Counted from the first letter of the stretch, positions 10,009 to 57,717 are shown. The stretch is 64,000 nucleotides of DNA from a virus (IMGVR_UViG_3300030117_003378:9802-73801), one strand, 5' to 3'. Notes: generated by a model not told the origin, from the sequence alone. A program made the numbers and translations.

Positions 10009-11927
10009 TACAATACCTCCATAATACTCAAAAATGTTTGGTTAACACCTACATTATCACCAATAAGATTTTTACCTGAACCTCCATTGTGATAACAAAA
10101 TAACTGAAGATAATCACCTGCGGATAATTGTAACAAAAGAGTCCCATTAGAAATCCATGATGAGTCTTTACCATAGTTTCCTCGATAAAGACCTGTTGTG
10201 TCTCCATTTTTTTGTAATTGGACAATTACTGAATGAGAAGAAGTTACATATCTGACTGTTGCGCCCATCGCCACAAGATACACACCGTCGCGTGGGACTA
10301 CCCATTTACGATTTGTATTATCCCATGCGCTTGCAGTATCAAAAGCGACAGTATCAAGTGGACATAAAGTGTAAGCCGCACTTGTAGCAAAGTTTGTTAC
10401 ACTTGTTCCGAGAGAGATATGTGCAACATGGGGCGAAGTAACAACAAAATCCATATTGCCGTTAGCATCGTCGTAAGTCACCGTTATGCCCGTTTTTGTA
10501 CCTCCGGTCGCCACCAAAGCCCCTGCGTAGTCCTCAACCTGTTCTTGAGAAAGTTGTGTGTTTGTATCGGCAGAAGAAATTGTAACAACACCACCGGCCT
10601 CTGCTAAAGTAATGTTTGTACCTTTTTTCAGCATTAGAGTTTCGCTTGAGCCCAATGTGTTGTCGGCACTTCCGTCGCCATCTGTATCAACTGTTACCGT
10701 TCTTACCGAGCCGCCACCACCGGATGCCGCAGCCCACTCAATATCGTTACCACCACTGTTGACGGTAAGAACCTGATTCGCAGAACCTAAAGCAAGAGTT
10801 GACATTGAAACGTTACCGTTGCCGATAAGCAAAGACTTAGACACTACATTATTCAACCCTGTTCCACCTTGAGACACGGGGAGGGTGCCTTTGGCATCAA
10901 GAGAGCGATAAATACCATCTGCGACCTGTTTGAAGTTCCAAGAGCCATTTATTTTTGGGCGGTTCAGCAAGTGTATTTCAGAGCCGGGGTTTGCGTTCGG
11001 ACCGTATAATCTTCCACCGCTGGCTATTTCCAACTTGTCGCATTCAAGAACGGCACCTGAAGTAATCGCGCAATAATGGCTAGCCGTTGTTGCTCCCGGT
11101 TCAATGACGACTGACCTGTAAGATGCAGTAAATGAGGTTCCGTAACCGGCCCCCGTAACAGGTAGATTAAACGGACCCGCACTACCGTAGAAATGTACGG
11201 TGGATTTACCCCAATCGTGTAGAGCAGTAGAGGAAGAGGCAAATGTACCGTTAATTTTGAATATGGCTGAATAGTCAGCCTCGACTGTTACAACACCGCT
11301 AGGAGTCAAACTAACATTGTTGCTAGATATGTTGAGGTTTAGCATTTCTACACCCCTGTCTATGTTAGCATTTTGTAATGTCGTGTTAAATGCGGGCGAC
11401 CATTTCTGTCCCGATGAGCCAGCAGTAACATCTACATTTGGGTACGTTCCTGAAGGCAAAACCATTCTACCCGAAGCATCAGAGCCAATCACTGTAAACT
11501 TAAATGTTGTCCTTGAACGAGATGTAGAGTCGTCGAATATACCATTGTCCAACAGAGACAAGGATTCAGTAACGGAATCTGTTGACCCGGCAAATTTTAC
11601 AAAACTGTTGGAGTAATCGTAAGCGCTATCTGAAAAGTTAAACACCAATGTTCCCGAGACAGTCAAAAAATTGCCGCGCTCAAATAGGGCACTTTTCAAA
11701 TTGATTGTACCTGCGGAAATAGTAACAGAAGCATTTCCTCCTTTGAAATCTTCCATGACTCTAATATCATCGACAGTGCCATTTGTTGCTGGATTCCAAA
11801 CACAAGGGTTTCCCGGCTCTCCCATAAAAACTACTGTGTCACCGGAACCGGGAACTGCACCCGTGTCCCAATTCGCGGCGGTGTTGTATGCGTTAGATGC
11901 CACGCCAAGCCAAACTGTAACTGCCAT
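10008..11927 (-). CDS. Fibre/receptor-binding-type virion protein with a C-terminal C1q/TNF-like domain
   Basis: 639 aa, Gly/Ser/Thr-rich; TLPVSQGGTG fibre motif; C-terminal WVVPRDGVYLV...LLQLSAGDYLQL typical of C1q-like heads. Confidence 0.7.
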   Translation of the reverse strand: MAVTVWLGVASNAYNTAANWDTGAVPGSGDTVVFMGEPGNPCVWNPATNGTVDDIRVMEDFKGGNASVTISAGTINLKSALFERGNFLTVSGTLVFNFSDSAYDYSNSFVKFAGSTDSVTESLSLLDNGIFDDSTSRSRTTFKFTVIGSDASGRMVLPSGTYPNVDVTAGSSGQKWSPAFNTTLQNANIDRGVEMLNLNISSNNVSLTPSGVVTVEADYSAIFKINGTFASSSTALHDWGKSTVHFYGSAGPFNLPVTGAGYGTSFTASYRSVVIEPGATTASHYCAITSGAVLECDKLEIASGGRLYGPNANPGSEIHLLNRPKINGSWNFKQVADGIYRSLDAKGTLPVSQGGTGLNNVVSKSLLIGNGNVSMSTLALGSANQVLTVNSGGNDIEWAAASGGGGSVRTVTVDTDGDGSADNTLGSSETLMLKKGTNITLAEAGGVVTISSADTNTQLSQEQVEDYAGALVATGGTKTGITVTYDDANGNMDFVVTSPHVAHISLGTSVTNFATSAAYTLCPLDTVAFDTASAWDNTNRKWVVPRDGVYLVAMGATVRYVTSSHSVIVQLQKNGDTTGLYRGNYGKDSSWISNGTLLLQLSAGDYLQLFCYHNGGSGKNLIGDNVGVNQTFLSIMEVL

Positions 11928-11945
11928 GCTTTCCTCTCACTATCA

Positions 11946-12410
11946 CTAATCACTCAACACACCTGACAAATCATCAGACGAGTCGTGTGTTGTCGTAATG
12001 ATAGTTTTGGAAGAAGGTGTCGCGCCTGTCTCAAGTCGCGTGTCTGTTTTGCCCGAATAGAATGCACTGCCTCCTTTCTCTTCGATAGTTCGCAGTGCCT
12101 CCAACGCTTGCTTTTCAAAAGATTTAAGTTGTTGGTTGTAACGAATATCCTGTGTACCTTGTTCCTTTTCAGGAACCCATGCTGGAACGGTGTCAATCAA
12201 GACACGCAAGCAGTCGCAGCATACTAGGAGTTTGACAGCACTTTCTTTGAGAGCGGTAGTAGGTGCGTTATCAACTACACCAAAGTTAGCGCCACGCGCT
12301 TTCTTGGTAACTTCTGCGTCACGGATTGTAATGTATTCGTTGATTGTACCGTCGTTTAGTCCACGCGGTCTATTCAACAAATCACGAATCTGCGCTACCG
12401 TCACTGCCAT
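11946..12410 (-). CDS. Head-tail connector-like protein
   Basis: Likely start MAVTVAQIRDLL at 12410; helical connector pattern; downstream of capsid genes. Confidence 0.55.
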   Translation of the reverse strand: MAVTVAQIRDLLNRPRGLNDGTINEYITIRDAEVTKKARGANFGVVDNAPTTALKESAVKLLVCCDCLRVLIDTVPAWVPEKEQGTQDIRYNQQLKSFEKQALEALRTIEEKGGSAFYSGKTDTRLETGATPSSKTIITTTHDSSDDLSGVLSD

Positions 12411-23496: not shown

Positions 23497-23584
23497 TGAT
23501 TAATACGAAAAGCGGTTGCCCTTTAAGTGTTGTGGGGCAAATAGACGGAATTGTTATCACTCGCGCTCACATTTTAACATTCCA

Positions 23585-23854
23585 ATGACTGACACAGTAG
23601 AAGGGACTGATTGGGGTTCGCTTTGGGATGCGGTCACGAAGCCGGACCCTTTCACGGTGTGTTTTGACGATTTTTGCTACGATGTTCCGGGGTGGGGTTC
23701 GCCATACTTGCTTGCTTTGGGCATTTTTGAAATCCTGTGGTGGTTATTCGTTTCTGCGTGGTTAGGGAGAAAACTTAAGAGAGTCTTGTTGCGTCGTAAG
23801 GCTCGGAGGGAACGGCGTGAGCAAACAGACGGATTTGATAATGACCCGTATTGA
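23585..23854 (+). CDS. Single-TM membrane protein
   Basis: LLALGIFEILWWLFVSAWLG followed by an Arg-rich tail. Confidence 0.6.
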   Translation: MTDTVEGTDWGSLWDAVTKPDPFTVCFDDFCYDVPGWGSPYLLALGIFEILWWLFVSAWLGRKLKRVLLRRKARRERREQTDGFDNDPY

Positions 23855-24134
23855 CATTATCAATGACAAGGTCGGAGATGTCCGCGAAGACTTGCGCCGC
23901 CATGAGACACGCCTCGTCCGATTGGAAGATATGAATGCAGACCATGAGGCGGCGACAGAACGAATCTCCTCATTGGTTGAAATGGTGGCATTGGATGTAC
24001 GGGAAATTAAGAACGGCCCTGTCTATTCCCTCGACAAGTTTATCACGAAGCGTGTAGCCCAAATCGTGAGCGCATGGACGGGCGGCGTTGGCATCTTCCT
24101 ATTTTTCGTGTTCAAATTTTTTGAAGTAATATAA
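23817..24134 (+). CDS. Coiled-coil protein with a C-terminal membrane anchor
   Basis: Heptad region, then GGVGIFLFFVFKFF. Confidence 0.6.
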   Translation: MSKQTDLIMTRIDIINDKVGDVREDLRRHETRLVRLEDMNADHEAATERISSLVEMVALDVREIKNGPVYSLDKFITKRVAQIVSAWTGGVGIFLFFVFKFFEVI

Positions 24135-24170
24135 TTTTTTTTTTGAAAAAATTTTATTGTGTATTTTGTG
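24110..24170 (+). terminator. T-rich tract, putative archaeal-type terminator and left boundary of the island
   Basis: ATAATTTTTTTTTTGAAAAAATTTTATT directly at the stop of 23817..24134. Confidence 0.55.
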
Positions 24171-24282
24171 CGAAGGTTGCCCCAGTGAATATACAAGATG
24201 GCCGGATTTATGGCAAAATCGCCGTTTTTGGGCTGGAATCGACGATTTTAGAGGTAGTCAAGTATATATGTAACCACTAACA

Positions 24283-24302
24283 TGGGTCACCATGGTGACC
24301 CA
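24283..24302. promoter_or_regulatory. Perfect 20-bp palindrome TGGGTCACCATGGTGACCCA over a start codon
   Basis: Seen directly; about 20 nt downstream of TATATAT at 24263. Confidence 0.6.
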
Positions 24303-25233
24303 CCTGAGCCGGAATCGGAAGGCGATAGCCTCACGCGTAGCACTGTGTGACATGGTCGGATTTGGTGATATCGCCGAATTGAAGTACGAGGCCACAGAAT
24401 CAACTCAAGGCATGGGCCGGTTCAAAGAGTCCAACGGTGGACACCTAACCAAATTCGGCAAAGAGATGGTTCTAAGCATGGAACAGGCCGGATATGCTGG
24501 CAAGGGTATTAGTCGAGGCGGGTTCATCGTCGATGCCAGCGAAGAGGGATGGCAATACGCCGCCGATGTCCTAGGAGGTAACCCATGGCACCGATTAGAC
24601 GACGGGCAAGTTATCCAATACGGTGACATCAGACAAAGCGACAACCCATTGACTAACAACTACTACCACGTTCTACAAGGCGTATTCGATATGGCAGAGG
24701 GTGACCGTGACCTTGAGCGACTTATCGCCCTCCTTCATACAAAGGTCCGATTCAAGACCACATTTGACGAGGCACAAGGTAACTACGACACAGGCCCAAG
24801 CACCCGAACCCTATGGACAAAGGCACGTTCATGGGTTCAATTCATCCGTAAGAAGGAGAAGCAAGCCGGATTCATGCCCATTCTACTCAAGGACGCCGGA
24901 CATTATGACCGCATCAAGCACCTTATCGTCAAGCCGTCCGATGTTATTCACCTATCCGGCAAGCGTGCCGGAGATGTCAAGCAGTCATGGCTTGACGCAG
25001 TAAAGCGACGCCGTAAGAACGCGGACAGTCGCAACAACAAACGTTCAAACCGTAGCCGTTCCCGCCGCAAGACAGCGGGAGAGAAGGCTAAGCGGTCAGC
25101 CCGGAAGAACCGCCGGGGTGCTACGCGGGAAACCCCCACACAGCGTAGCGAGGCAGGACGCGCCTACGAAAGCGTCAGTGCAAAGCACAGCAGGGACATT
25201 GCACCTGTGACCCGCAAGGGATTCACTAAGTAA
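24292..25233 (+). CDS. Hypothetical protein with an Arg/Lys-rich C-terminal tail
   Basis: 313 aa; KRRRKNADSRNNKRSNRSRSRRK...; probably leaderless (TATA about 28 nt upstream). Confidence 0.75.
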   Translation: MVTHLSRNRKAIASRVALCDMVGFGDIAELKYEATESTQGMGRFKESNGGHLTKFGKEMVLSMEQAGYAGKGISRGGFIVDASEEGWQYAADVLGGNPWHRLDDGQVIQYGDIRQSDNPLTNNYYHVLQGVFDMAEGDRDLERLIALLHTKVRFKTTFDEAQGNYDTGPSTRTLWTKARSWVQFIRKKEKQAGFMPILLKDAGHYDRIKHLIVKPSDVIHLSGKRAGDVKQSWLDAVKRRRKNADSRNNKRSNRSRSRRKTAGEKAKRSARKNRRGATRETPTQRSEAGRAYESVSAKHSRDIAPVTRKGFTK

Positions 25234-25236
25234 TGC

Positions 25237-25791
25237 TGGCTCCGCCTTCGGGCGTCGAGCAATTCCCTGACCCCCTAACAGGGGGTGGCCCTCAAAGGGC
25301 GACCCATTAGGCGGAGCCATGGACGGCGTAGCATACCGTTCCATTGTTCTGAACCGGTGGGTTGCAAAGGTACCTATGTCCCGGCTTGTGACCCCAAGCC
25401 CGACAGAGAGCCACCCCCGAATAGGATTCCAAGAAAGGACAGAATATCAGGGCCGAACACGGGCAACTGTGGTGAGGAAGAAAAAGGGGGTGGCTTGGCT
25501 TAACCTTATCAAGTCTCTCATTTCACCTTGACAGGAAACAGTTGCCGTGCGGCGATATAACCAAAAACTGTTTTCATTGTCTTGGTGGTGAGATAAAATA
25601 CTGTGTGTTTATACCGTTAGAGTTTGGTTGCTTTCTCTATCCGACAAATACAGCAACAAATACACACAAGGCGCTATCCGTAGTCTGAGTAGTTAACAGA
25701 TTGCGAACAACGTAAGAGAGAGGTTGTGGGGTGACTCCCCTCTCCGCCTATCCGTAAATCAGCCGTAGCCGGTCACAAGCCCGGTTTAGAA
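25237..25791 (+). ncRNA. Large structured non-coding RNA or UTR element 1 (about 555 nt)
   Basis: 11-bp helices 25237-47/25309-19, 25347-57/25781-91, 25383-93/25771-81 and 25408-18/25486-96, plus many local hairpins with G-U pairs and UUCG/GCAA loops. Confidence 0.7.
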
Positions 25792-25838
25792 ATGATGAGT
25801 GCGGAAACCCGACCGAAGAGGGATAAGGAGTGAGAAAA

Positions 25839-26411
25839 ATGAATGGAACAGAAGCAGTCGTTCTGCTTTTCTTCATGGGCGTATTTGCCGTAACGGCAAA
25901 AATCGCACACGGAGTTAAGAAGGGCGATATTGTGATGGTGAAGCCAACGCTTTCCGCAATCGCGGAAGGTCTTGGTCTAAAGGTGGAAACGGAATATGAT
26001 GCGCCATATTGGTTGCAGATTGTCCACGCGCATGGGTTTGAAAAAGCCTTACGCGGCGTGGTCAATACGCTGAAACATGGTGGTCAACTTGTTGCAGAAG
26101 TAAACGTGTTTGCTTTGTACAACAAGGGAGTTCGTGAGATGAACGCAATACCGTGGAGAATTGGAAAAGAGTTGGCAAAACTCAACACGCAATTTGAGTG
26201 TGGTTGTACCGAAAAACTAGATGATGGTGTTGCGTCATGCACCGAGATATTGGAGATGGCAATTAAGTCGTTGGTTGAAGAACATTATCGGCACAATGCT
26301 TTAGCGCGGTTAAACAAATTCTATCTTGACCGCCTCGCTTCGGATGCTGAAATCGAAGCGGACAATGCCTCTCGATGGGGAACGCACATACCCGTTAAAG
26401 GTATGGATTGA
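25839..26411 (+). CDS. Hypothetical protein with a hydrophobic N-terminus
   Basis: GGAGTGA RBS before ATG 25839; 190 aa. Confidence 0.7.
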   Translation: MNGTEAVVLLFFMGVFAVTAKIAHGVKKGDIVMVKPTLSAIAEGLGLKVETEYDAPYWLQIVHAHGFEKALRGVVNTLKHGGQLVAEVNVFALYNKGVREMNAIPWRIGKELAKLNTQFECGCTEKLDDGVASCTEILEMAIKSLVEEHYRHNALARLNKFYLDRLASDAEIEADNASRWGTHIPVKGMD

Positions 26412-27020
26412 CCGGGCTTAGGCCCCGATTGTGAGTCCGGGGGGGTACATCCCCCTCGGCTCCGACGGGAAAGCCGAAAGGCAGGAGGTGAAAACTGAAA
26501 TGGCACAATTGTTAGTGAGACTTGAGTTCCCAAAAGAAGGATGCGTTTTTGAGGAATACAAAGTAGCATGAACACCACAGAACACGGAGACAGGGTGAGT
26601 CGGTACGTCCGGCCCCTGCTCCAAAGTGTCACTGTGACACTCGGTAAACCACAGTTAGCAAGTTGTAGCGTTAGTAAGCAAACGAGCAAAGGGTTGGAAT
26701 GACAGAGGTGCGCGGAAAGGCATTGCGCCGGACCCCTGCTGTCATAAACAACAAAGAAGCCATGTGATAACGGGACAGTCTGTAAGCATTAAAGAAGCGA
26801 TACCTGCCAAACATGAAGGATTAGACCTCCTATCATTGAGGTACAAAAAATCGCAATACGCAAGCAGATTGACACCCACACGATATGAAGGCGATAGCAC
26901 AAAGCGAACACAATACAACGAACTGACTGACATAACCGCATTAAAGGCATGAGGAGTTCGACGCCAGAGTTACTCATGGCCCACCATTTACCGGTGGGTA
27001 CTCGGATGGCGCAAAATAAC
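26412..27020 (+). ncRNA. Structured non-coding RNA or UTR element 2 (contains a micro-ORF)
   Basis: Hairpins 26433-26462, GCC-GAAA-GGC 26473-82, 26586-26622, 26699-26745, 26776-82/26865-71, 26948-78 and 26980-98. Confidence 0.6.
26500..26571 (+). CDS. 23-aa micropeptide MAQLLVRLEFPKEGCVFEEYKVA
   Basis: Perfect GGAGGTGA RBS at 26484-26491, the same as for the two downstream genes. Confidence 0.5.
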   Translation: MAQLLVRLEFPKEGCVFEEYKVA

Positions 27021-27033
27021 GGAGGTGACATTT

Positions 27034-30000
27034 ATGACAAACAACATGAATGTAACTAACGGTCTACGGGTCGTCTTCGTTGTCATGGCACTTGCTTTCG
27101 TTGGCCTCGCGGCTAGCGGAGCAGTTGTCACAGACAGCGCAGACACCCACGGGGTTGTAACAAACCCCACACACATGGGAGTCGGTGGAAACACTGACCA
27201 CATGGAGGTGCTTGAGTTGCACCATCGTCCGCGAAACAGCGCCCAACGTCGTCGTTGGCGTCTTGCCAAAACATCATGGCAACGTCGACGCGCTCGTTGG
27301 CTCTCGCTGAATAGCCTTCAGGCTTTGCGAGACGCATGGGACAAACTTGCCCCAAGAACACAGTTTAGAATTAAGCACGGCTTCGCCAAAGCAAAATTCG
27401 TGGGTGTTATTGGGCTGATGGCTATGATGACTTACTACGTCATCGGACTGCCATTGGCCTTCCTTGTGGGCAAAACCAACCGACGGTGGTACAAGCCCGG
27501 TGTCTATGTGGCGGCGGATTACCTCGTTGCAAAACTCAAATCCGATAAAGAGGATAGAGAACTTGTAGCGCAGGAAAAACGTCAACTGCATCGGGACATG
27601 GATGAGGTTCAGGACGAGTTGAACATTGCGACTGAAGAACACGAAAAAGCGGTTGACCATCACCGTGAACTAGAATTGTTGCATAAGGACGACCCTGTAC
27701 TGTTTGGTGAGGACGAACTGAAGCAAGCAATTGCTGATGTAGAAGACACCAAGGAATGGGTCAACGAAGCCACTGAGTCATTGCAGTCTGTTCTCGACAG
27801 AGTGGAACAATTCTACTCTGTCAAGATTGATATGCGGCTTGGTAAGTACGGTGAGAATGTAGCCGAGAAATACGGCAGTAGGTTCGCTGAAGTTGACACA
27901 AGTCTGTTGGAACTTAACCCTGACAACTGGACAGTTGCACCTGAGCATGAAGCAAAGGTTCTGAACATTAGCGACGAACCTAAAGATGGCTTGCGACAAA
28001 TGATGCGAACCAATCTACGGGAAGTGTCAAAGGAGTTTGGTGTGCAAACACCTGTGTTCCGCAACGGTCCGCGTTCGTACACCATCAAGGGCGACGGTTC
28101 AGTGCATGACTATGTCAGAGACGCTGACAGGTCAACCGATACGGTAGCACCCGATACCCGTGCCTATGGCTTTGAGACAAATTTCCCTGTCTCAAACCTA
28201 ACTGCGATGATGCGTCACTTGGACATCTACTACACGGCGCAACAACGGTTCCATTGGCCCGGACACTCAAAGCCCGGACAACCGTCAATGATTGTTGATG
28301 TAGAGTGTGGTTGGCACCTCCACATATCGGTTGCCGCTGGACTTGAGGGCGCGAAGGACAACATCAAAAGAATTCGCAAACTTGGTACTGGCAACGCAAC
28401 ACACGATGTGTGGGTTGACTGGCAAGCCGCATTTACCATTAACTATCATGGTAACATTGAGCAGTTCAATGGGATGATGGGCAGAAGCCGCGACCACAAC
28501 AACAGTAACAACACTGGCTATGCGAAGCCTCAGTTTAGTCGTATCAACCATTTGCGTAAGGCAAAGGCACTGTACGAACTTGCGAAGCCTCGCGTGACAG
28601 AAACGGCGCAGGAAGCAAAAGACCGCTTCACTTCGCTCGCTGTTGAGTGGCGAAAGTTTGACGGACCCCATGCGGTTGGACACGAAACACTGGAACAACT
28701 GGAAAAGTGGGACGGCGTGTCTGCCGTTCCTACGCGAGTTGCTAACCGGTTGCTTAAGAATGCTCGTAAGAAGTATCACGAAGCATTTTGGGCTATGGTC
28801 GACGAAGGTCGTAGCGACTACTGGATGGTTAACTTCGGTGGTTATACGGAACACGGCACAGTAGAGGTCAGACACATGGGCGGATTGAACAACTGGTTCA
28901 CTTCCTGCCTATGGATGATTACCATACAAAAGTTGATGATTGATTCAATGGATGGCAAAGAGTTCTTCATTGCATCACAACACAACAATGGTAGCCAAAA
29001 GGACCCACGCCGCGATGCGTCACAGGCACACGCCTTTGCACAATGGTTGTGTAACGGCTACGAGTGGCCGAAGCCGGTACAGGTTTTCTTGGATGTCTAC
29101 GGCATCACGGAATTCGCAAGTCTGAATGCGGACGCTGTCAACAAGAGTCACCTTGAAGGACAAAGTGTCTTTGTCGAGTCAATCTTGGCATTCAAGGAAT
29201 TTGACGATTGGCAACCATCTGCTGATTTCGTGGACATGAGCGACAAGCGATTAGCCAAGTGGCGACAAAAGTCGTATGCCATGATGGGTGAGACATACAT
29301 CGAACCCGGCAGTACCAACCCGTACAACGCAAGTCTGTTCGGTGTCGGCCTAATCGGTGCTATTGTCGCAGGTACGTCACCAGTGCTAATTGCGCTCGCG
29401 TGCGTAGCGTGTGGCATCGGCGGTTGGATTAACATGAACGTCGATGACGATGGCAAGCCGACAAAGCCAAGTCGTGGTGAGTGGAAGGGGATTCTCAGAA
29501 TCCTCGCCGAACTGTCCTCGCGTGGCTCAGAAGCCTGTGGTGTTGCTTACAGCAGAGGTGACGGTAAGGTACACGGTGCATGGGAAGTAGAACCCGAGTC
29601 CAAGAAGAAGGACAAGTGGGGCTACTACTCATCAGGTATCAACGTACCCAAGATGGTCGGCAGTCTGATTATGAAGAAGATTGCCAAGGGCCTCGGTCGA
29701 ATGGGCTTCCGCATGAAGTGGGTTATGACGCACACCCGTCATAGCACAGGCGGTGCTAACAACCGACGCAATGCACATCCAATCAAGGTTGGACCGAACG
29801 ATAACCAAAATGCCGGTATAGTGCTAACGCACAACGGCATGATTTCGTTCAACGCAGAGCGCAAGGTCGAGGACACGCTACCCGAAGAATACTTCGTATC
29901 GCGTAGCAAGGACATTCGTGGTCTTGAGTTAGATACACGTTGCATCGTGTACTGCTTGGACTACTATGGTTCGACCAACGACGGCATCGACAAGATGGCG

Positions 30001-30732
30001 GCACTGTGTGACTTCGACGGTAGAGCGTCCATGCGTCTCGTATGGGTCGACAAGTCAGAATCGCGTGACGGGTTCCCCGAGCGCGTTCACTTGTGGGCTA
30101 ACTGCGACGACCTATGGGTTGCACAGACAGTCAAGGGTAACTGGGTGTATGCTTCAACGCAAAACATCTTGAAGCGTACCTTCGGTAACGTGCTTATAGA
30201 CAGCACTATCCGACACCTAAACCTTGACGCGCACTATGTCATTGATTGGCAACATGGCCTAATCAACCTTGGCAAGTGTGGCAACAAGCACATCGTAGAG
30301 CCTGTCAAGCGTGACTCAAACGCATGGAAGACTGGTCGTAGCACAACTAACAAGCCCGCGACTGTCAACTTAGATGCTTTGGTGTCACCCAAGACAGTAC
30401 CGCCTGTCAAGAACATCATGGATGACGGCTTCTACGAATGCCGCAACTGTGAAAACGGACACTGGTTGACGTTTGACAACAACTGGAATATGTGCCAAAT
30501 CTGCGGTCGTTCAGCAGACGATGTGGTTGACTCTTGCAGTAGCCCATCGTGTGAGACTGACACATTGTGGGACACCTTGCCCGAAGAGGTCAAGACAACT
30601 GTTCCACCTGTTGGTAGTCCTGACTTGAAGGGATTTGTCGACGAGGTAAATGCCAAGGCAAAGGTTGACGCTAACCTGCGACCGGTCAAGGGCGCACTCA
30701 TGGCGCACGACGAAGACACGCGACAGGCCTGA
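27034..30732 (+). CDS. Membrane-associated COOH-NH2 ligase (amidoligase type 2) / class II glutamine amidotransferase polyprotein with a C-terminal Zn ribbon
   Basis: Ligase motifs GDGS, GFETNFP, CGWHLHIS, YWMVNF and HGTVEVRH; Ntn motifs CGIGG, RGSEACG, HTRHST, NAHP and HNGMI; three hydrophobic segments; GGAGGTGA RBS before ATG 27034. Confidence 0.8.
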   Translation: MTNNMNVTNGLRVVFVVMALAFVGLAASGAVVTDSADTHGVVTNPTHMGVGGNTDHMEVLELHHRPRNSAQRRRWRLAKTSWQRRRARWLSLNSLQALRDAWDKLAPRTQFRIKHGFAKAKFVGVIGLMAMMTYYVIGLPLAFLVGKTNRRWYKPGVYVAADYLVAKLKSDKEDRELVAQEKRQLHRDMDEVQDELNIATEEHEKAVDHHRELELLHKDDPVLFGEDELKQAIADVEDTKEWVNEATESLQSVLDRVEQFYSVKIDMRLGKYGENVAEKYGSRFAEVDTSLLELNPDNWTVAPEHEAKVLNISDEPKDGLRQMMRTNLREVSKEFGVQTPVFRNGPRSYTIKGDGSVHDYVRDADRSTDTVAPDTRAYGFETNFPVSNLTAMMRHLDIYYTAQQRFHWPGHSKPGQPSMIVDVECGWHLHISVAAGLEGAKDNIKRIRKLGTGNATHDVWVDWQAAFTINYHGNIEQFNGMMGRSRDHNNSNNTGYAKPQFSRINHLRKAKALYELAKPRVTETAQEAKDRFTSLAVEWRKFDGPHAVGHETLEQLEKWDGVSAVPTRVANRLLKNARKKYHEAFWAMVDEGRSDYWMVNFGGYTEHGTVEVRHMGGLNNWFTSCLWMITIQKLMIDSMDGKEFFIASQHNNGSQKDPRRDASQAHAFAQWLCNGYEWPKPVQVFLDVYGITEFASLNADAVNKSHLEGQSVFVESILAFKEFDDWQPSADFVDMSDKRLAKWRQKSYAMMGETYIEPGSTNPYNASLFGVGLIGAIVAGTSPVLIALACVACGIGGWINMNVDDDGKPTKPSRGEWKGILRILAELSSRGSEACGVAYSRGDGKVHGAWEVEPESKKKDKWGYYSSGINVPKMVGSLIMKKIAKGLGRMGFRMKWVMTHTRHSTGGANNRRNAHPIKVGPNDNQNAGIVLTHNGMISFNAERKVEDTLPEEYFVSRSKDIRGLELDTRCIVYCLDYYGSTNDGIDKMAALCDFDGRASMRLVWVDKSESRDGFPERVHLWANCDDLWVAQTVKGNWVYASTQNILKRTFGNVLIDSTIRHLNLDAHYVIDWQHGLINLGKCGNKHIVEPVKRDSNAWKTGRSTTNKPATVNLDALVSPKTVPPVKNIMDDGFYECRNCENGHWLTFDNNWNMCQICGRSADDVVDSCSSPSCETDTLWDTLPEEVKTTVPPVGSPDLKGFVDEVNAKAKVDANLRPVKGALMAHDEDTRQA

Positions 30733-30796: not shown

Positions 30797-31291
30797 ATGG
30801 AGAAAACAATCAAGAAGATTGAAGCCCATTTGGCTCTTTGGATTGAGATGGTTGCGGTATTGTGGATTGATGGCAATGCCCACTATCTACTTTTCAATGA
30901 ATACCAAATATCCATGTTCCGAAGTGGACGAACACTACACTTTGGTTTGGTCGTAAACGGTGAAACGGTTGCCAAGTCTCAAATGTCATGGATGCCCGGT
31001 TGTTCAGCAATTTGGTTTGCACATGGCCTTTGGGTACATGAAGACTACCGGTCAAAGGGGAAGCACTCAGGTTGCGGTGCATTATACATTATTCGCCAAT
31101 GGCAGAGAAGACTCTTGTTGGATATGGAAGCGAGCCGTGTTTACATCACGGTGCCAGCAGATAATCCAGCAGGGTTGAGAGCGGCTGAAAAGGCGGGTTA
31201 TGTAAGAATGCCCGACCCACACGATGTGGTTAGCGAGCGACACGGATTCGGACGAGCAATCATGTTCGTTTGGGACCCAATCGGCGCTTGA
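30797..31291 (+). CDS. GNAT-family acetyltransferase
   Basis: LWVHEDYRSKG (motif A) and NPAGLRAAEKAGY (motif B); GGAGGTGA RBS. Confidence 0.8.
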   Translation: MEKTIKKIEAHLALWIEMVAVLWIDGNAHYLLFNEYQISMFRSGRTLHFGLVVNGETVAKSQMSWMPGCSAIWFAHGLWVHEDYRSKGKHSGCGALYIIRQWQRRLLLDMEASRVYITVPADNPAGLRAAEKAGYVRMPDPHDVVSERHGFGRAIMFVWDPIGA

Positions 31292-35222: not shown

Positions 35223-36185
35223 ATGGCAAAGACAGGAAGAGCAGAAGCCGCGCTGAAGCGCGACCAAATGAGAAACATGGTGGTTGAAACCATCATCAAG
35301 CAAATGGAGAGTGGAAGCACCGATTGGTTGCGACCGTGGACAAAGTCGGGTGGTTCAGAATTGCCCGTCAGCAACGTCGGTCGCTCATACCGAGGCATCA
35401 ATGTATGGTGGCTTTGGGCCAACGCATCTCAAAACGGATGGGGCAACGAATGGGGGACTTTCGCTTCATGGAAGAAGGCCGGAGAAGCACACGCTAACTC
35501 AATCGGAAGTGACGAGTATTTCGGTGTTCAGAAGGGCATGAAGTCTACACCGGTTTTCTTCTACAAGATGCTCAAGATTAAGGACAAGGACAACGAAGAC
35601 GAGGAGAAGATGATTCCCCTGCTCAAGTGGTTCTATGTGTTCAACCGAGCGCAGACCAACCTGCCGGACAAGGTATATGTTGATGACGAAACTCACGAAG
35701 TCAGCGAGGAGGCCGCAGAATTGGAGGCGTTGGCACTGTACGACAAGCACAATGTGGATTTGCGGTACGGTGGAGGTCGAGCATTCTATCGGGTGTCGAC
35801 AGACCACATTCAAATGCCGAATCGAGAGCATTTCCGTGACTCGACAGGGTTCACGGCAACACTACTACACGAATTGACTCATTGGACAGGTCACCCGTCA
35901 CGACTCAATCGGAAGTTGGAAAACTCATTCGGAGGCAACGAGTACGCCTTTGAGGAATTGATTGCAGAGATGGGTGCGGCAATGGTTTGCGCCGAGGTCG
36001 GCGTGGACAATGACCACCTGATGATTGACAACCACGCGGCATACGTCACATCGTGGCTCAAGGGACTCAAGACGGACGGTGGCGCACAAGCCCTATGGCG
36101 AGCCGCCGCCCATGCACAGAAGGCCGCAGATTGGATTCTCGGCACAGGCTACGACGGAAAGGAGGACGAGAAGAATGAATCATAA
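35223..36185 (+). CDS. ardC: ArdC-like antirestriction protein (ssDNA-binding domain plus zincin-like domain)
   Basis: WLRPW, YRGIN, W..F..W, VFN..Q, AFY...D.I.MP, HELTHWTGH..RL.R and YAFEELIAE. Confidence 0.9.
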   Translation: MAKTGRAEAALKRDQMRNMVVETIIKQMESGSTDWLRPWTKSGGSELPVSNVGRSYRGINVWWLWANASQNGWGNEWGTFASWKKAGEAHANSIGSDEYFGVQKGMKSTPVFFYKMLKIKDKDNEDEEKMIPLLKWFYVFNRAQTNLPDKVYVDDETHEVSEEAAELEALALYDKHNVDLRYGGGRAFYRVSTDHIQMPNREHFRDSTGFTATLLHELTHWTGHPSRLNRKLENSFGGNEYAFEELIAEMGAAMVCAEVGVDNDHLMIDNHAAYVTSWLKGLKTDGGAQALWRAAAHAQKAADWILGTGYDGKEDEKNES

Positions 36186-48801: not shown

Positions 48802-49029
48802 ATGAGTAACTTTGTGACACAGGAAGAGTTTGCGGTCGTGGGTAACGCCACGTTGGAATTATTAAACAGAATGAAGATGGCGGAAGCGCGTTTAGCGAAT
48901 ATCGAAAACGCCATCATTGAGTTAGGTAATACATTGACTATTGTTGCCAACCACCTTTCGTTGGTGTCCGATGTAACGATTGATTCAGGTGCGGTCGAGG
49001 CCGCACGTCAACGGAGGGAGAATCAATGA
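48802..49029 (+). CDS. Small coiled-coil protein
   Basis: Follows the promoter cassette at 48757. Confidence 0.65.
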   Translation: MSNFVTQEEFAVVGNATLELLNRMKMAEARLANIENAIIELGNTLTIVANHLSLVSDVTIDSGAVEAARQRRENQ

Positions 49030-49955
49030 GTGTGATTTGGTGGGAGAAGCACCGGCCAAAGTGCTTCGATGATTTGGTCGGGCAGGACCACATTATCAAG
49101 CACTTCCGAGTAAAGAGTGTTGCCGAGGCGGAGGGGCGAGATACCGCCAATCTACAACACATGATTTTCCACAGTCAAGGTGCAGGGACAGGCAAGACTT
49201 CCCTCGCATATATCCTCGCTGAAAAATACAGGCTTCACCTTCAGATATTCAATGCGTCCACGCGAGAGCAACGGGGCATCGGCTTCGTTCAGGATGAAGT
49301 CATCCCACTCGCACAGTCGCACCCCAACGTCTTGATTCTTCTTGATGAGGCAGACCAACTGACGCCGGACGCACAGTCCGCGCTCAAGGGCGTCATCGAG
49401 GGTAGCGTGGCTACGTTCATTCTGACCTGCAACAACCTCAATAAGATTAGCCCGTGGCTTCAGTCACGGTGTCAAACCCATGTGTTCAATCCTATTACAC
49501 GGGACACTATGATTCAACAATTGATGAACATTGCGGCGGCAGAAAATCTTACGCTAAACTCAAGGGCTGATTTCGGGGTCATAGCAAAGGCACATGAGGG
49601 CGACCTGCGTAGCGCCATCGGTGCATTGCAGACAGTGGCACTTCTTGAGGGCAAATCCCGAGAGCGATTCATCCGGTCGTTACAAGACCCCGAATTTGAC
49701 GCCAACAAATTCCTAAGACTCACATTCAAGGAGCGAGCATTCGACGAGGCTATGGCTATGACTAAGCCTCTCGACCCCCTCACTCTCATCAACGTCGTGT
49801 TCAAGCACGGCACTAATTCTCCCGCAAGTCCACAGGCAAAACTACGCCTGATTGACGCCGCAATCACGTCACGACGTGACCTGATTATGGGTGTCGAGGA
49901 TGTATTTGTACGGCACAACTTTGTTCGCCTTCTGTGCGAACCGGAGGATTTATAG
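49026..49955 (+). CDS. rfcS: Clamp loader, RFC small subunit-like
   Basis: WEKHRP, GTGKTS, NAS, LDEAD, ILTCN and SRC motifs. Confidence 0.92.
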   Translation: MSVIWWEKHRPKCFDDLVGQDHIIKHFRVKSVAEAEGRDTANLQHMIFHSQGAGTGKTSLAYILAEKYRLHLQIFNASTREQRGIGFVQDEVIPLAQSHPNVLILLDEADQLTPDAQSALKGVIEGSVATFILTCNNLNKISPWLQSRCQTHVFNPITRDTMIQQLMNIAAAENLTLNSRADFGVIAKAHEGDLRSAIGALQTVALLEGKSRERFIRSLQDPEFDANKFLRLTFKERAFDEAMAMTKPLDPLTLINVVFKHGTNSPASPQAKLRLIDAAITSRRDLIMGVEDVFVRHNFVRLLCEPEDL

Positions 49956-51216: not shown

Positions 51217-53028
<1,812 letters not shown>

Positions 53029-54006: not shown

Positions 54007-54165
54007 ATGCCGATTAATCCTGTGGGCAGGAAGTGGCCTCCGTGGCCCAAATGCCCTAAATGTGATAATGGATATTTGTTATTGGTGGGTGAATACTTTG
54101 ACTGTCATTCGTGTTGGTACAAGATTCCGTACAAGGAACACGGACACGGTGGCGGTCGATTTTAG
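54007..54165 (+). CDS. Small zinc-ribbon protein (52 aa)
   Basis: CPKC...CHSC; stop codon overlaps the first base of the tRNA. Confidence 0.5.
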   Translation: MPINPVGRKWPPWPKCPKCDNGYLLLVGEYFDCHSCWYKIPYKEHGHGGGRF

Positions 54166-54240
54166 GGGGTGTAGTCTAATTGGAAGGACATCTGCTTTGC
54201 AAGCAGAAGACTCGGGGTTCAAGTCCCTGCACCTCCACCA
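54165..54240 (+). tRNA. tRNA-Ala(UGC) with encoded CCA
   Basis: Acceptor GGGGGTG/CACCTCC with G3:U70; anticodon arm TCTGC-TTTGCAA-GCAGA; T loop GTTCAAGTC; 76 nt, no intron. Confidence 0.95.
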
Positions 54241-55446: not shown

Positions 55447-57717
55447 GTGATTGTCGACCGAGGCAAGGGCCGCAAGGTCATTGTCAGATACCGTGACCCC
55501 GAAACACGGGAGCGGAAGGTCGAGACAATCAGCAACCACTACCCTTATTACTTCGTTGACAAGGAAGAGATGCCGGTGGGTGACCCCGGTTGGGACTTGG
55601 CACGGAGTGAGGGCGTTATCGGTGTAGATGACGGAGGCGACATCGGTGTGTACGGAGAGAAACTGTTAAAGGTTACCTGTTCGTACCCCGAAGTCGTCTC
55701 CAAAACCCGCGAAGGATTCCACCGTACATGGGAGGCAAATATCCCTTGGACTGTTCGGGTTCTCGCAGATGCCGACATAGACATCCCCATGTATGAACAC
55801 CGTGTATGGACATTGGACGCCGAGTGGTTGGTGGACAGTGGTCGCATCAACATGATTACCGTTCACGATTCCTATACAGACAACCTATACACATGGTTCG
55901 TCGACTCGGAAAATGATTCCGATATGATGGTGTCCTCGATGGAATGTAAGAAGCACCCTGAAGGTGTGACGACGCTCAAGTTTGAGACGAATGCCATGCA
56001 ATGCAGGGATGAGAAGACTCTACTGACTGCGTTTGTGAAGCACATGGATAAGCACGACCCTGATGTACTGATGGGTTGGTATCTTGTCGGTGCTGACATC
56101 AAGCAGATTGCGATGAGGATGAGGGCAAACAAACTCAACCCTGCGTCGCTTTCCCCCATGCGGAGGCACACTTACGATTACGGTGATTGGGACCAACCAA
56201 TCCCCGGTCGTATTTGCTTCGACCTGATGCTTGGGTTCGTTAAACTGTGGACAGTAAAGAACGGACAGTTGCCGGGTCGAAAATTAGATGATGTGGCGTG
56301 GGAAGTATTGAGTGAGAGAAAGGTTCCCTTGGAGGACGGACACGACACATACTACACCGACCTCGCCACTTACATCGACTACAACAGACAGGACGTGAGG
56401 CTACTGCCTCGCCTCAATGATATGCTCAACTGTCTGAATCATTATCTTACCCTTATGCACTTGTGCAAGGTGGACTTCCGAGCGACACCACACGTCACCA
56501 AATTGACGACGGGGTTGCTACTCAACGATGACGAGTGGGTATATCGGATTCCGACACGCCCACAACACGAATACGAGGCGTATGATGGCGCGGACATCAT
56601 GGAACCGGAAGCCGGTGTGTATCAGAACGTGGGCATCCTTGATATTCGGGCCATGTACCACAGTAATGTAGACCTCCACAACATATCGTGGGACACGCTT
56701 GACGAATCCGGCAAGGACTGTGGCAACGGTGTTCGCTTCTCACAGGAAAAGAAGGGTACTTTGGGTCGCATGATGGGTAACTTGACCGAATTACGCAATG
56801 AATACAAGGCGAAGAAGGCACAGGCCACTGACCCATACGAAATTACCAAATATGACGCCATGCAATATGCTACGAAGTCCCTCGTCGCATCTCTATACGG
56901 GGTGTGCGGTGACAGTAAGTATTCGTTGTATCACCCAAAGGTGGCGTCGTCTATCACATTCACAAGCAGGGAGACTCTCGGACGCCTTCGTGACCTATCT
57001 GAAGAGCGTGGGTCGCGGGTCATCTATGGTCACACGGATTCCGTGTTCGTAGAGGCGGAGAGCGTTGGTATTTTGGAGGCTACCTGCAACGACATCAATG
57101 AGGTCATGCACCCCATCGTCGTCGAGTTTGAGAAGTACGCCGAGACAATGTTCATCAAGGCGAAAAACCGTTACGCAGGTAAGGTCACATGGTCGGAAGG
57201 CAAGTATCTTGAAGAGCCGGATTACTATGTCAAAGGGATTGAATTGAAACAGTCCCGCTTACCACCTGCCATGAAGACCACGATGATGACAATTCTGCGT
57301 GGTATTCTCGACGGGCAGACGCAGGACGACGTGTCCGGCTCACTGTCCTCGTTGATTGAGGACGTGGTCAACGAAAGAGTCCCGCTTGAGGACTTGATGA
57401 TTAAGGGGTCACTTTCCAAGCCCCTGAGTAAGTACGCTTCCATCTCAGGCACCGCACAGGGCGCACAGTGGGCCAACACCCACTTGAACAAGGAATACAG
57501 TGAAGGGGACTACTTTCACTGTATTCTTACGGAGTCCGGTGACTATGTGGCCTTCGACAGTCCCGATGAAATAGACGGTATGGTCGATGTTGGTTACACT
57601 GAGATGGCGAAGCGATTCATTGTCAAGAAGGCACAAGACCTGTACAACGTGGTTGGGTGGGATTACACGCCTTTGGAGAATGCCTTACATGGCAAGGGGG
57701 ATATGATGTGGCTCTGA
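55447..57717 (+). CDS. polB: Family B DNA polymerase
   Basis: Exo DAE and YNRQD; pol DIRAMYHS, KSLVASLYG, YGHTDS, KNRY and KGIE; no intein. Confidence 0.96.
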   Translation: MIVDRGKGRKVIVRYRDPETRERKVETISNHYPYYFVDKEEMPVGDPGWDLARSEGVIGVDDGGDIGVYGEKLLKVTCSYPEVVSKTREGFHRTWEANIPWTVRVLADADIDIPMYEHRVWTLDAEWLVDSGRINMITVHDSYTDNLYTWFVDSENDSDMMVSSMECKKHPEGVTTLKFETNAMQCRDEKTLLTAFVKHMDKHDPDVLMGWYLVGADIKQIAMRMRANKLNPASLSPMRRHTYDYGDWDQPIPGRICFDLMLGFVKLWTVKNGQLPGRKLDDVAWEVLSERKVPLEDGHDTYYTDLATYIDYNRQDVRLLPRLNDMLNCLNHYLTLMHLCKVDFRATPHVTKLTTGLLLNDDEWVYRIPTRPQHEYEAYDGADIMEPEAGVYQNVGILDIRAMYHSNVDLHNISWDTLDESGKDCGNGVRFSQEKKGTLGRMMGNLTELRNEYKAKKAQATDPYEITKYDAMQYATKSLVASLYGVCGDSKYSLYHPKVASSITFTSRETLGRLRDLSEERGSRVIYGHTDSVFVEAESVGILEATCNDINEVMHPIVVEFEKYAETMFIKAKNRYAGKVTWSEGKYLEEPDYYVKGIELKQSRLPPAMKTTMMTILRGILDGQTQDDVSGSLSSLIEDVVNERVPLEDLMIKGSLSKPLSKYASISGTAQGAQWANTHLNKEYSEGDYFHCILTESGDYVAFDSPDEIDGMVDVGYTEMAKRFIVKKAQDLYNVVGWDYTPLENALHGKGDMMWL

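Follow-up and report, generated by a model that had tools for sequence, protein, structure and literature searches.

According to passages in PMC3890496, PMC5498523 and PMC10580990, Iyer et al. 2009 used computational analysis to predict a phage cassette of an Amidoligase_2 ligase and a class II glutaminase, which occurs in phiEco32-like, LUZ24-like, Laroyevirus and other phages. This pair of separate amidoligase and GATase genes is already known, and it is usually accompanied by ATP-grasp and COOH-NH2_lig ligases and a gamma-glutamyl cyclotransferase. Passages on marine viruses describe Vyasavirus brisbanense, predicted to be a virus of Poseidoniales (PMC11706807), and the OM43 phages MEP401/402 (PMC10580990) as carrying auxiliary genes named 'amidoligase' and 'GATase'. 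In Staphylococcus aureus, the ATP-dependent ligase and glutaminase MurT-GatD amidates a carboxylate of membrane-bound lipid II at the cytoplasmic face (PMC3267633). By inference, a glutamine-dependent amidoligase tethered to the membrane would find its nearest functional counterpart in MurT-GatD, although for that complex the folds are unrelated (a Mur ligase and a class I triad glutaminase) and the proteins are separate, soluble and not self-cleaving.

Class II glutaminases offer two further points of comparison. In Bacillus subtilis PurF (11 residues) and in the large subunit of glutamate synthase, an N-terminal propeptide is removed to expose Cys1. EgtA/EgtC of ergothioneine synthesis combine a GCL-type ligase with a class II Ntn hydrolase that removes a gamma-glutamyl group; they are separate cytosolic bacterial enzymes, and EgtC starts Met-Cys.

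We analysed a window of 64,000 nucleotides (the whole stretch IMGVR_UViG_3300030117_003378:9802-73801) in which one viral protein joins an ATP-driven amide-bond ligase to a glutaminase via a hydrophobic segment. Similar to the phage cassette, the locus is viral, lies in an early or replication arm and combines the same two enzyme families in the order ligase then glutaminase, with a function that is predicted. In the cassette, however, the enzymes are soluble products of separate genes with a Met-Cys glutaminase (Arthrobacter phage Wheelbite and Escherichia phage LAMP checked), whereas here they form one chain with N-terminal anchors, an internal Cys and a hydrophobic linker abutting that Cys. 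Pfam and PHROG searches of most ORFs of at least 100 aa between 24.3 and 38.5 kb, which can miss small or divergent genes, found no gene for an ATP-grasp enzyme, a further amidoligase or a gamma-glutamyl cyclotransferase. Across 23 loci the fused gene has no conserved family of neighbours on its flanks, and no ergothioneine-type pathway partners were found in the window. Like V. brisbanense and MEP401/402 as their passages describe them, the virus is marine and carries the trio of metallophosphoesterase, amidoligase and GATase; it also encodes PolB, GroEL and an RFC-like loader, a set that has been described in magrovirus-like viruses. Those passages give the enzymes by Pfam name and mention no fusion, linker or internal Cys, and the window protein is set apart from them by description only. 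A membrane-linked fused precursor appears to be undescribed so far.

Gene layout and the two catalytic domains

The features of the locus, all on the + strand, are as follows.

27021..27028, +: Shine-Dalgarno sequence GGAGGTGA, 5 nt 5' of ATG 27034, read directly
27034..30732, +: whole ORF, precursor of amidoligase, hydrophobic linker and class II glutaminase; 1232 aa plus stop, 138.9 kDa
27070..27132, +: N-terminal hydrophobic segment, residues 13-33, hydropathy 2.5; signal-peptide-like or membrane anchor
27391..27471, +: second hydrophobic segment, residues 120-146; its C-terminal half contains a Pro
27910..29190, +: glutamine-synthetase/GCL-like carboxylate-amine ligase domain, residues ~293-719 (AF2, structure comparison, hhalign)
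29329..29409, +: hydrophobic linker, residues 766-792, ending Ala-Cys-Val-Ala, with a conserved Ser-Pro 10-11 residues before Cys793
29410..29412, +: TGT codon of Cys793, the predicted Ntn nucleophile, invariant in every alignment; predicted scissile bond between Ala792 and Cys793
29410..30288, +: class II (Ntn) glutamine amidotransferase domain, residues 793-1085 (fold search, weak Pfam match, PHROG)
30439..30552, +: C-terminal Cys-rich stretch, residues 1136-1173, zinc-ribbon-like (CxxC...CxxC), then CxxxxC

On recomputation, the frame was open throughout, and each motif named in the preliminary description fell where it had been placed. Ligase motifs CGWHLHIS and HGTVEVRH start at residues 425 (nt 28306) and 607 (nt 28852). 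The glutaminase start motif CGIGG begins at residue 793 (nt 29410), directly after hydrophobic residues 766-792 and with no Met codon at the junction; it is followed by RGSEACG (830-836), HTRHST (900), NAHP (913) and HNG (933). Kyte-Doolittle windows delimit three hydrophobic segments, at residues 5-36, 120-146 and 766-792. GTG 27025, which the ORF finder lists, falls within the Shine-Dalgarno sequence.

The ligase domain was modelled by AF2 with pLDDT mostly 75-90. VIA comparisons spanning model residues 14-440 matched it to glutamine synthetases (Z 13.3, rmsd 5.2, 253 aligned, down to Z 12.0), YbdK 1tt4 (Z 12.9, rmsd 4.5, 263 aligned), GCL 2gwc (Z 12.4, rmsd 4.7, 251 aligned) and PafA/Dop (Z 10-11). 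Together with this GS/GCL-type fold we found the motif set E-x-E, G-x-H-x-H, S-R, N and G-T-x-E-x-R; the individual motifs (EHE ~302-304, FE ~382, CGWHLHIS 425, SR ~481, VNF ~598, HGTVEVRH 607) align with those of Pfam-positive Amidoligase_2 relatives. Pfam Amidoligase_2 (PF12224) has no match on the window protein or its genome; its 22-bit cut-off is passed by relatives P0007 (44.7), P0008 (29.3), P0013 (40.7) and P0014 (47.2), and hhalign joins the window clade to the Pfam-positive clade over the ligase region (probability 100%, E 2.5e-45). By these alignments, the ligase is homologous to proteins that pass Amidoligase_2. The preliminary description also had a hydrophobic segment preceding the ligase, which is directly so in shorter relatives; here, the core starts at ~295, some 150 residues after the second hydrophobic segment.

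The glutaminase domain was modelled with pLDDT 80-96 as a four-layer alpha-beta-beta-alpha Ntn fold. Foldseek matched it to GlmS 1xff (E 3e-9, TM(target) 0.67-0.70), and VIA gave Z 16.5-23 to PurF, GFAT, EgtC, AsnB and GltS, with GlmS 1xff (Z 22.0, rmsd 2.8, 222 aa) and EgtC 4zfj (Z 20.5, rmsd 2.6, 214 aa) among the best fold matches. Also among the matches are 1ao0, 1gph and 6s6s, which we take to be structures of propeptide-bearing class II amidotransferases (PurF or glutamate synthase); the window domain shares their Ntn fold and superposes from its Cys onward. Cys793 (model residue 514) falls on residue 1 of the GlmS, AsnB and GltS chains and, in VIA, on residue 2 of the PurF and EgtC chains, with Foldseek in agreement. 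Residues C793, G794, R830, G831, H900, R902, T905, N913, H915, P916, H933, N934, G935 and D967 are invariant down to ~20% identity, so that the catalytic Cys, the Arg (R830), the Asn-Gly oxyanion hole (N934-G935) and the glutamine-site Asp (D967) are all in place. This invariance argues for a working glutaminase.

Both domain calls of the preliminary description, an Ntn glutaminase fold with Cys793 at the Cys1 site and a GS-like amidoligase fold, are upheld. In Pfam, relatives pass GATase_6 and Amidoligase_2; the window protein itself lies below the GATase_6 cut-off (22.3 against 27 bits) and lacks an Amidoligase_2 match. The GATase_6 cut-off is passed by P0009, P0012, P0013 and P0014 (44-60 bits), hhalign links the window clade to the Pfam-positive clade at probability 100%, and PHROG 4736 matches the window's glutaminase domain at 7.5e-7.

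Conservation of the fusion and its junction

The fusion is common to ~45 independent metagenomic sequences of 21-93% identity. Close relatives at 79-93% identity share the whole layout, and the fused form with a conserved junction recurs in 4 close relatives, in 3 long relatives at 33-34% identity, in 26 proteins of 756-953 aa, and in 20 IMG/VR loci and 8 metagenome loci. In a tree of relatives, all 32 fused forms lie on one side of one branch (support 95/86), which is compatible with a single origin. Cultured phages have both enzymes as adjacent separate genes, as in Wheelbite gp93/gp94 and LAMP gp84/gp83, where the glutaminase has a Met-Cys start, and the fused form is absent among 50,697 GenBank phage records; such pairs might suggest that the fusion is an artefact of assembly or gene calling, a concern the preliminary description had raised itself. 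We consider the chance of this negligible. One uninterrupted frame spans both domains in the window. The same holds for loci L001, L002 and L005-L024, for 7 of the 8 loci L089-L096 and for ~35 protein clusters, which come from separate projects (JGI, ENA, Tara, Logan) independent of one another; frames uninterrupted across 21-96% identity refute the artefact reading. The two-gene Met-Cys form belongs to distant relatives, and the fused form, as a separate and deeply conserved clade, is not an assembly fusion but genuine; on present sequences, an entire lineage of uncultured viruses keeps this layout. Its nearest viral relatives of the stand-alone type begin Met-Cys-Gly-Ile, so that in separate genes this Cys is always N-terminal.

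Aligning homologues confirmed that a hydrophobic linker and a junction of a small residue followed by Cys-Gly are conserved in all fused relatives. In each, a hydrophobic segment of 25-30 aa ends at the catalytic Cys, with a Pro ~11 residues upstream. Such a segment directly precedes the Cys in 34 of 34 fused relatives and in 0 of ~44 stand-alone Met-Cys relatives, a pattern beyond chance; because the sequences are related, we place weight on conservation down to ~20% identity and not on the count. The residue at -1 is Gly, Ala or Asn, the Asn being seen in one subclade, and that at -3 is mostly Leu or Ile in relatives and Cys in the window protein. The segment lies ~450-790 residues from the N-terminus among fused forms. 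Mean hydropathy over the 20 residues before the Cys is ~1.8-2.5, within an uncharged stretch of 25-30 residues. AF2 gave the linker a pLDDT of ~30-50, and that of relative P0013 was modelled, with low confidence, as two short helices broken at the Pro.

Flanking charges differ between clades. Members of the shorter clade have an acidic flank N-terminal to the first anchor and 2-6 Lys/Arg (4-6 in most) after it, the upstream flank of their linker is acidic with 0-2 Lys/Arg in nearly all cases, and the 25 residues from the Cys onward hold 4-7 Lys/Arg and almost no acidic residues. Net charge after the Cys in this clade is +5.5 in fused and +0.7 in Met-Cys forms (Mann-Whitney p 2e-11, uncorrected for relatedness). 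From these flanks, both catalytic domains would read as cytoplasmic. The window clade is without the basic cluster (net charge 0 to +1 after the Cys), and its own flank charges give no clean topology. The N-terminal hydrophobic segment is present in all full-length fused relatives; in the window protein it has one basic residue upstream and an acidic flank downstream, and in the window clade, with basic residues ahead of it and acidic ones behind, it looks like a signal peptide that can be cleaved. The second segment is missing in P0003-P0005 (79-87% identical) and in P0006/L092; as it comes and goes among close relatives, the domains downstream probably keep their topology with or without it. 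A linker acting as a plain membrane span would put the two domains on opposite sides of the membrane, an arrangement ill-suited to ammonia transfer.

Proposed cleavage at the junction and competing readings

In Ntn glutaminases, the free alpha-amino group of Cys1 is the general base. Since this amine is needed, the Ala792-Cys793 bond would have to break for activity, and the glutaminase Cys, buried mid-chain, must almost certainly be freed by cutting the protein, a prediction that follows solely from established Ntn enzymology. The junction DNA (GCG CTC GCG TGC GTA GCG / TGT GGC ATC GGC GGT) contains neither a start codon nor a Shine-Dalgarno sequence before the Cys793 codon, so Cys1 cannot be supplied by internal initiation.

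We lean, by a modest degree, towards a single-chain, self-cleaving precursor of two enzymes whose halves cooperate at the membrane. The gene would then encode a machine of two enzymes that an uncultured marine tailed virus makes early in infection. Residues 1-792 would supply one or two hydrophobic anchors, a helical spacer and a GS-like ATP-dependent carboxylate-amine ligase, and residues 793-1232 a class II Ntn glutaminase followed by a zinc-ribbon-like tail; the putative helix-Pro-helix joining them, 25-30 residues long, hydrophobic and conserved, would end exactly at the catalytic Cys. The likeliest route is intramolecular Ntn-type self-cleavage, in which Cys793 would attack the preceding carbonyl (an N-to-S acyl shift) and the thioester would then be hydrolysed, yielding an 89.9-kDa ligase fragment with a hydrophobic C-terminal end and a 49.0-kDa glutaminase. 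At the cytoplasmic membrane face, the halves may cooperate by passing ammonia from glutamine to an ATP-activated carboxylate (amidation, as in MurT-GatD or asparagine synthetase); alternatively, the ligase may add and the Ntn domain remove a gamma-glutamyl group (as in EgtA/EgtC). Ntn hydrolases generally self-activate by nucleophile-driven cleavage chemistry, and here the nucleophile stands right after the predicted scissile bond, with Gly, Ala or Asn before it. Against this, the propeptides of PurF and glutamate synthase are short and soluble, whereas one of ~790 residues with membrane-type segments and a whole partner enzyme lies, to our knowledge, far beyond precedent among class II amidotransferases.

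Several other readings compete with self-cleavage. The chain might stay uncut, the hydrophobic segment serving as an anchor between domains and the Ntn-like domain working without a free N-terminus, either as a module for glutamine/gamma-glutamyl binding or for regulation, or as a thiol enzyme that uses a different general base. Fusions to partner enzymes are common, and the linker is modelled as disordered or weakly helical and not packed into the active site. We nevertheless find this doubtful: the full glutaminase catalytic set is invariant over deep divergence, stand-alone relatives keep the Cys at residue 2 after Met, and the junction, where in every member the hydrophobic segment runs right up to the Cys and -1 is Gly, Ala or Asn, looks constrained and unlike a free linker; moreover, we know of no class II amidotransferase that is active with a blocked Cys1 amine. 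Cutting by a host membrane peptidase at an internal signal (signal peptidase I, a lipoprotein-type enzyme after Cys lipidation, or an intramembrane protease), which the preliminary description had entertained for a segment that it called signal-like, has been weakened and is very unlikely. Sec and lipoprotein signal peptides are N-terminal and need a basic n-region, followed by a cleavage motif (A-x-A or lipobox). This segment is internal, following a folded zinc-binding ATP-dependent domain, and nearly all members of the shorter clade have an acidic flank ahead of it. The window's Cys-Val-Ala before the Cys does obey the small -3/-1 rule of signal peptidase I, but the Leu or Ile at -3 in most members is unfavourable for it. 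Likewise, the Leu/Ile-Val/Ile-Gly-Cys of many relatives matches the lipobox [LVI][ASTVI][GAS]C, yet the window's C-V-A-C fails it at -3 and one subclade has Asn at -1, so that the motif alone is ambiguous. Lipidation of the thiol would also destroy an otherwise invariant nucleophile, and an exported glutaminase would be without glutamine and its ATP-dependent partner. Because the segment is internal and usually has no basic n-region, and because lipidation would block the thiol, self-cleavage fits the data better than a host signal peptidase.

The segment might also not be membrane-embedded, but serve in a soluble precursor, self-cleaving or not, as a plug buried within the molecule, as a propeptide or as a helix for oligomerisation. 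AF2 builds no confident long helix, the conserved Pro splits the segment into stretches of ~10-14 residues that are each too short for a bilayer, and the second hydrophobic segment comes and goes among relatives about 80-90% identical with nothing else changed. Its hydropathy and uncharged length are, however, typical of membrane segments, every full-length fused member has an N-terminal hydrophobic anchor as well, and the basic cluster after the Cys, which within the shorter clade only the fused forms have, would suit an acidic lipid surface; we judge this reading unlikely.

A bolder version of the self-cleavage model, which we think improbable, would make the cut before the Cys a one-shot switch that at once unmasks the nucleophile and frees the hydrophobic C-terminal end of the ligase half. 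Only then could the freed segment insert as a tail anchor, or it could be passed from the thioester intermediate to another acceptor. Such a switch would explain how a membrane-type segment can join two enzymes that are both cytoplasmic, otherwise a topological paradox, and it would represent a new viral route to a membrane-bound glutamine-dependent amidating enzyme that remodels a lipid-linked precursor of the host envelope.

Beyond the glutaminase domain, the Cys-rich stretch gave a weak uS14 zinc-ribbon-like match (E 0.5) and was modelled by AF2 with low confidence. In relatives, additional Cys-rich modules are inserted beyond this stretch, in the region from ~residue 1214 to the C-terminus.

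Architecture of the window protein

The window protein is encoded on the + strand by an uninterrupted frame that begins with ATG 27034 and has its stop at 30732 (1232 residues). Recomputed on this protein, the motif positions quoted in the preliminary description were all confirmed, as follows.

27021-27028, + strand: Shine-Dalgarno sequence GGAGGTGA, preceding ATG 27034
28306 (residue 425), + strand: CGWHLHIS
28852 (residue 607), + strand: HGTVEVRH
29410 (residue 793), + strand: CGIGG
Downstream of CGIGG, + strand: RGSEACG, HTRHST, NAHP and HNG

Hydropathy analysis revealed three hydrophobic stretches, at residues 5-36, 120-146 and 766-792, the last of which terminates in Ala-Cys-Val-Ala and abuts Cys793. 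That description had also held that no Met stands in front of this cysteine, and indeed we found neither a start codon nor a ribosome-binding site ahead of Cys793, ruling out an internal translation start as the source of an N-terminal cysteine.

Its identification of an amidoligase joined to a glutaminase stood on fold and on relatives, but not on the Pfam scores of the window protein itself: GATase_6 scored 22.3 bits, under the 27-bit cut-off, and Amidoligase_2 matched nothing in the window's genome, even with E values up to 10 allowed. The protein matched a GlmS-like family in PHROGs (7.5e-7); phmmer against PDB sequences, using the whole protein and residues 760-1125, returned nothing useful, and only fold comparison was informative there. 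Relatives found by exhaustive phmmer and profile searches pass Pfam for both families, and in profile-profile comparison the clade of the window protein (the window clade) aligned to this Pfam-positive clade through ligase, linker and glutaminase as one stretch (probability 100%, E 2.5e-45).

An AlphaFold2 model of residues 280-1130 contains two confident domains and a linker of low confidence. The C-terminal domain resembles the glutaminase domain of GlmS (Foldseek E 3e-9; VIA Z 22.0, rmsd 2.8 over 222 residues), as well as PurF, GFAT-1, EgtC (Z 20.5), AsnB and glutamate synthase; Cys793 (model residue 514) superposes on residue 1 or 2 of all these chains. By VIA, the N-terminal domain resembles glutamine synthetases (Z 13.3, rmsd 5.2 over 253 aligned residues, down to Z 12.0), YbdK (Z 12.9, rmsd 4.5 over 263), glutamate-cysteine ligase (Z 12.4, rmsd 4.7 over 251) and PafA/Dop (Z 10-11). 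Cys793, Arg830, Asn934-Gly935, Asp967 and the HTR and NAHP motifs are invariant in every alignment.

Two further regions vary among relatives. The hydrophobic segment at residues 120-146 (27391-27471), 27 residues long and preceded by residues ~67-119, which are very rich in Arg, occurs in the window protein and its homologue P0002; in homologues P0003-P0005 (79-87% identical) a short non-hydrophobic stretch stands in its place, and P0006/L092 also lacks the segment. We read this as an indel polymorphism affecting a putative membrane element. Near the C-terminus, between about residue 1214 of the window protein and its end, P0002-P0005 have one or two additional modules rich in Cys and His (for example C-N-Q-x-C...H-P-H-E...D-C-L-D-C), none of which occurs in the window protein; the tail of the family appears to be modular.

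Conservation and distribution of the fused form

The fused proteins share a common layout: an N-terminal hydrophobic anchor, the ligase, often Cys-rich zinc-ribbon modules, 25-30 uncharged hydrophobic residues and then Cys-Gly-Ile-Gly. This layout is shared by four relatives whose identity is 79-93%, by three long relatives with 33-34% identity, by a set of 26 fused proteins 756-953 aa in length, and by 20 IMG/VR loci and eight metagenome loci. The IMG/VR loci were recovered with clade-specific alignments as queries; single-protein scans of IMG/VR with P0013, a shorter relative, and with the homologue P0012 gave no matches. Judged from these sequences, the fusion is real and old.

Homologue alignment bore out the expectation that the hydrophobic linker and a small residue before Cys-Gly would be kept in fused relatives. 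The 20 residues preceding the cysteine have a mean hydropathy of about 1.8-2.5 in 34/34 fused sequences examined, and nearly all fused sequences place a Pro 11 residues upstream of it. Position -1 is Gly, with Ala in the window subclade and Asn in one other. In this Asn subclade (L002/L095, residues 784-785; P0008, residues 771-772) the cysteine follows Leu-Ile-Asn, Asn replacing Gly or Ala. Asn-Cys is the arrangement of intein C-terminal junctions, and Asn cyclisation is a candidate contributor to cleavage in that subclade.

About 44 stand-alone viral glutaminases from the same searches start Met-Cys. A maximum-likelihood tree built on glutaminase domains puts all fused forms (32/32) to one side of a single branch (support 95/86), and the ESM Atlas holds two fused-architecture clusters, of 72 and 52 members, that are exclusively viral. 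Among GenBank phages (50,697 records), the window protein had no match by tblastn, and the matches of P0013 were to separate amidoligase or glutaminase genes only, never spanning at least 80% of P0013. Beside the fused clade branches P0012 (351 aa, from a 45.7 kb ENA contig), a glutaminase with 15 hydrophobic residues, M-I-L-F-A-I-V-A-A-I-G-L-M-V-G, before its cysteine; it may have a genuinely short leader, or its gene may be truncated or split. Homologue P0015 poses the same choice between a short leader and a truncated call.

Predicted cleavage, topology and chemistry

In class II amidotransferases Cys1 is the nucleophile and its free amine acts as the general base. Cys793 is internal and the remaining catalytic residues are conserved, which implies that the bond between residues 792 and 793 is cleaved, an event that would free the cysteine and split the chain into pieces of 89.9 and 49.0 kDa. 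Removal of Ntn propeptides is a known process, with precedents in PurF and glutamate synthase, and self-cleavage by the Ntn mechanism is the most likely account of how the precursor would work: it is economical because it would use residues that are already conserved, has those two propeptide precedents and fits the restricted residue at -1. A cut by host signal peptidase, for which the lipobox-like L-V-G/C (the slash marking the bond) of many relatives speaks, is less likely, since the hydrophobic segment is internal, most members of the clade of shorter fused proteins (the shorter clade) have an acidic, not a basic, flank upstream of it, and Leu or Ile at -3 suits signal peptidase I poorly. 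Moreover, the lipobox-like motif is lost in the window protein (C-V-A/C) and in the Asn subclade, and processing of the lipoprotein type would leave the thiol blocked by lipidation. Should self-cleavage be confirmed, no class II amidotransferase would be known to have a larger 'propeptide', and the protein would be an example of an Ntn precursor with its own partner enzyme as leader.

Charge patterns in the shorter clade bear on topology. The first anchor, acidic on its N-terminal flank and followed by 2-6 Lys/Arg (4-6 in most), reads as N-out/C-in, an orientation that would make the ATP-dependent ligase cytoplasmic. Starting at the cysteine, a stretch of 25 residues contains 4-7 Lys/Arg and almost no acidic residues, and net charge over residues 7-26 is +5.5, versus +0.7 in the Met-Cys forms; the glutaminase side also reads as cytoplasmic. 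Because a membrane span cannot simply join two cytoplasmic domains, the linker may be re-entrant, may be a C-terminal tail of the ligase half that inserts only after cleavage, or may not be embedded in the membrane. A re-entrant linker would fit the invariant Pro and the P0013 model, where the segment forms a pair of short helices (435-445 and 447-455). Topology is less clear in the window clade, in which the N-terminus resembles a cleavable signal peptide and the basic cluster after the cysteine is absent. The variable presence of the second hydrophobic segment among proteins 79-93% identical suggests that it has no effect on sidedness downstream.

To our knowledge, the amidoligase and glutaminase pair is among the most widespread viral enzyme sets without a tested function. 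The fused lineage couples the two enzymes physically, apparently directs them to the membrane and would make them depend on a predicted, defined proteolytic event; cleavage, localisation and glutaminase activity are all directly accessible to experiment. Two chemistries fit by analogy. An ATP-activated carboxylate could be amidated with glutamine, as by MurT-GatD on lipid II (PMC3267633) and asparagine synthetase, or a gamma-glutamyl group could be added and then removed, as by EgtA/EgtC. For the separate-gene cassette, PMC5498523 and PMC10580990, citing Iyer et al. 2009, speculate on cell-envelope modification or metabolite synthesis; the apparent tethering of the fused enzyme favours an envelope or lipid-linked target.

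Unlike the single chain of the window, Arthrobacter phage Wheelbite encodes a Met-Cys glutaminase (gp94) adjoining a separate amidoligase (gp93), and Escherichia phage LAMP has a Met-Cys glutaminase (gp83) adjoining gp84. The enzyme pair as separate genes and Ntn propeptide removal are already known. In the portions of the literature searched, a scope outside which Iyer et al. 2009 lies, and in GenBank phage records, we found no description of the fused form, which has a partner ligase and membrane-type segments ahead of the nucleophile, is conserved across a viral lineage and is absent from cultured phages; within that scope the fused form is apparently undescribed.

Genomic setting and virus type

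The window covers 64 kb of the 73.8 kb IMG/VR record, and the first of the large genes in the rightward arm is the fused one.

Leftward arm: portal, large terminase and Mre11-like metallophosphoesterase
Rightward arm, after the fused gene: ArdC-like anti-restriction protein, RFC-like loader, GroEL-type chaperonin, family B polymerase, PD-(D/E)XK and ERCC4 nucleases
49026-49955: RFC-like AAA+ loader, beside the chaperonin gene
54165-54240, + strand: tRNA-Ala (TGC), among the replication genes
55447-57717: family B polymerase, beside the chaperonin gene

In related loci, as in the window, the fused gene lies 3-5 kb past a divergent metallophosphoesterase-terminase-portal block, a position identical in 23/23 related viral loci carrying the gene; comparison of these loci revealed no other conserved neighbour. 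Viruses with the fused gene turn up repeatedly in ocean datasets, Tara and POV among them. This recurrence and the constant position make a role central to host takeover likely.

PolB and terminase are nearest to those of haloarchaeal tailed viruses (about 24% identity), and PMC11706807 reports a Poseidoniales-associated virus with metallophosphoesterase, amidoligase and GATase genes; together these suggest that the virus is likely a magrovirus-like archaeal virus. A scan of 185,579 species' genomes placed the fused gene on two MAG contigs only.

L086: CAXXDF010000003.1, 61,226 bp, binned as an Opitutales MAG
L085: NZQM01000009.1, 9 kb, binned as a Parvibaculum MAG

We set these labels aside as host clues, given that they conflict and both contigs look like mis-binned virus: L086 is probably so, being as large as related viral genomes, and L085 has the same appearance.

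Between the divergent arms, about 3.5 kb (23500-27030) holds only short ORFs that are unconserved as proteins in related loci, where a poorly coding stretch of 3-5 kb also precedes the fused gene. Directly 3' of the fused gene, an ORF at 30797-31291 (+ strand, 164 aa) has a sub-threshold match to GNAT acetyltransferases (17.4 bits, E 0.0055). We rejected it as a functional partner on its Pfam score, under the cut-off, and its absence from the same place in the 83%-identical locus L001; it probably does not accompany the fused enzyme consistently. The gene at 35223-36185 (+ strand) encodes 320 aa and hits PHROG 7245, 'anti-restriction protein', with 8e-72; it is conserved in L001, where its counterpart occupies the same relative position (11214-12176). 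The virus-encoded chaperonin, at 51439-53028 (+ strand), belongs to group I (GroEL type) and matches bacterial GroEL structures at E 1e-119.
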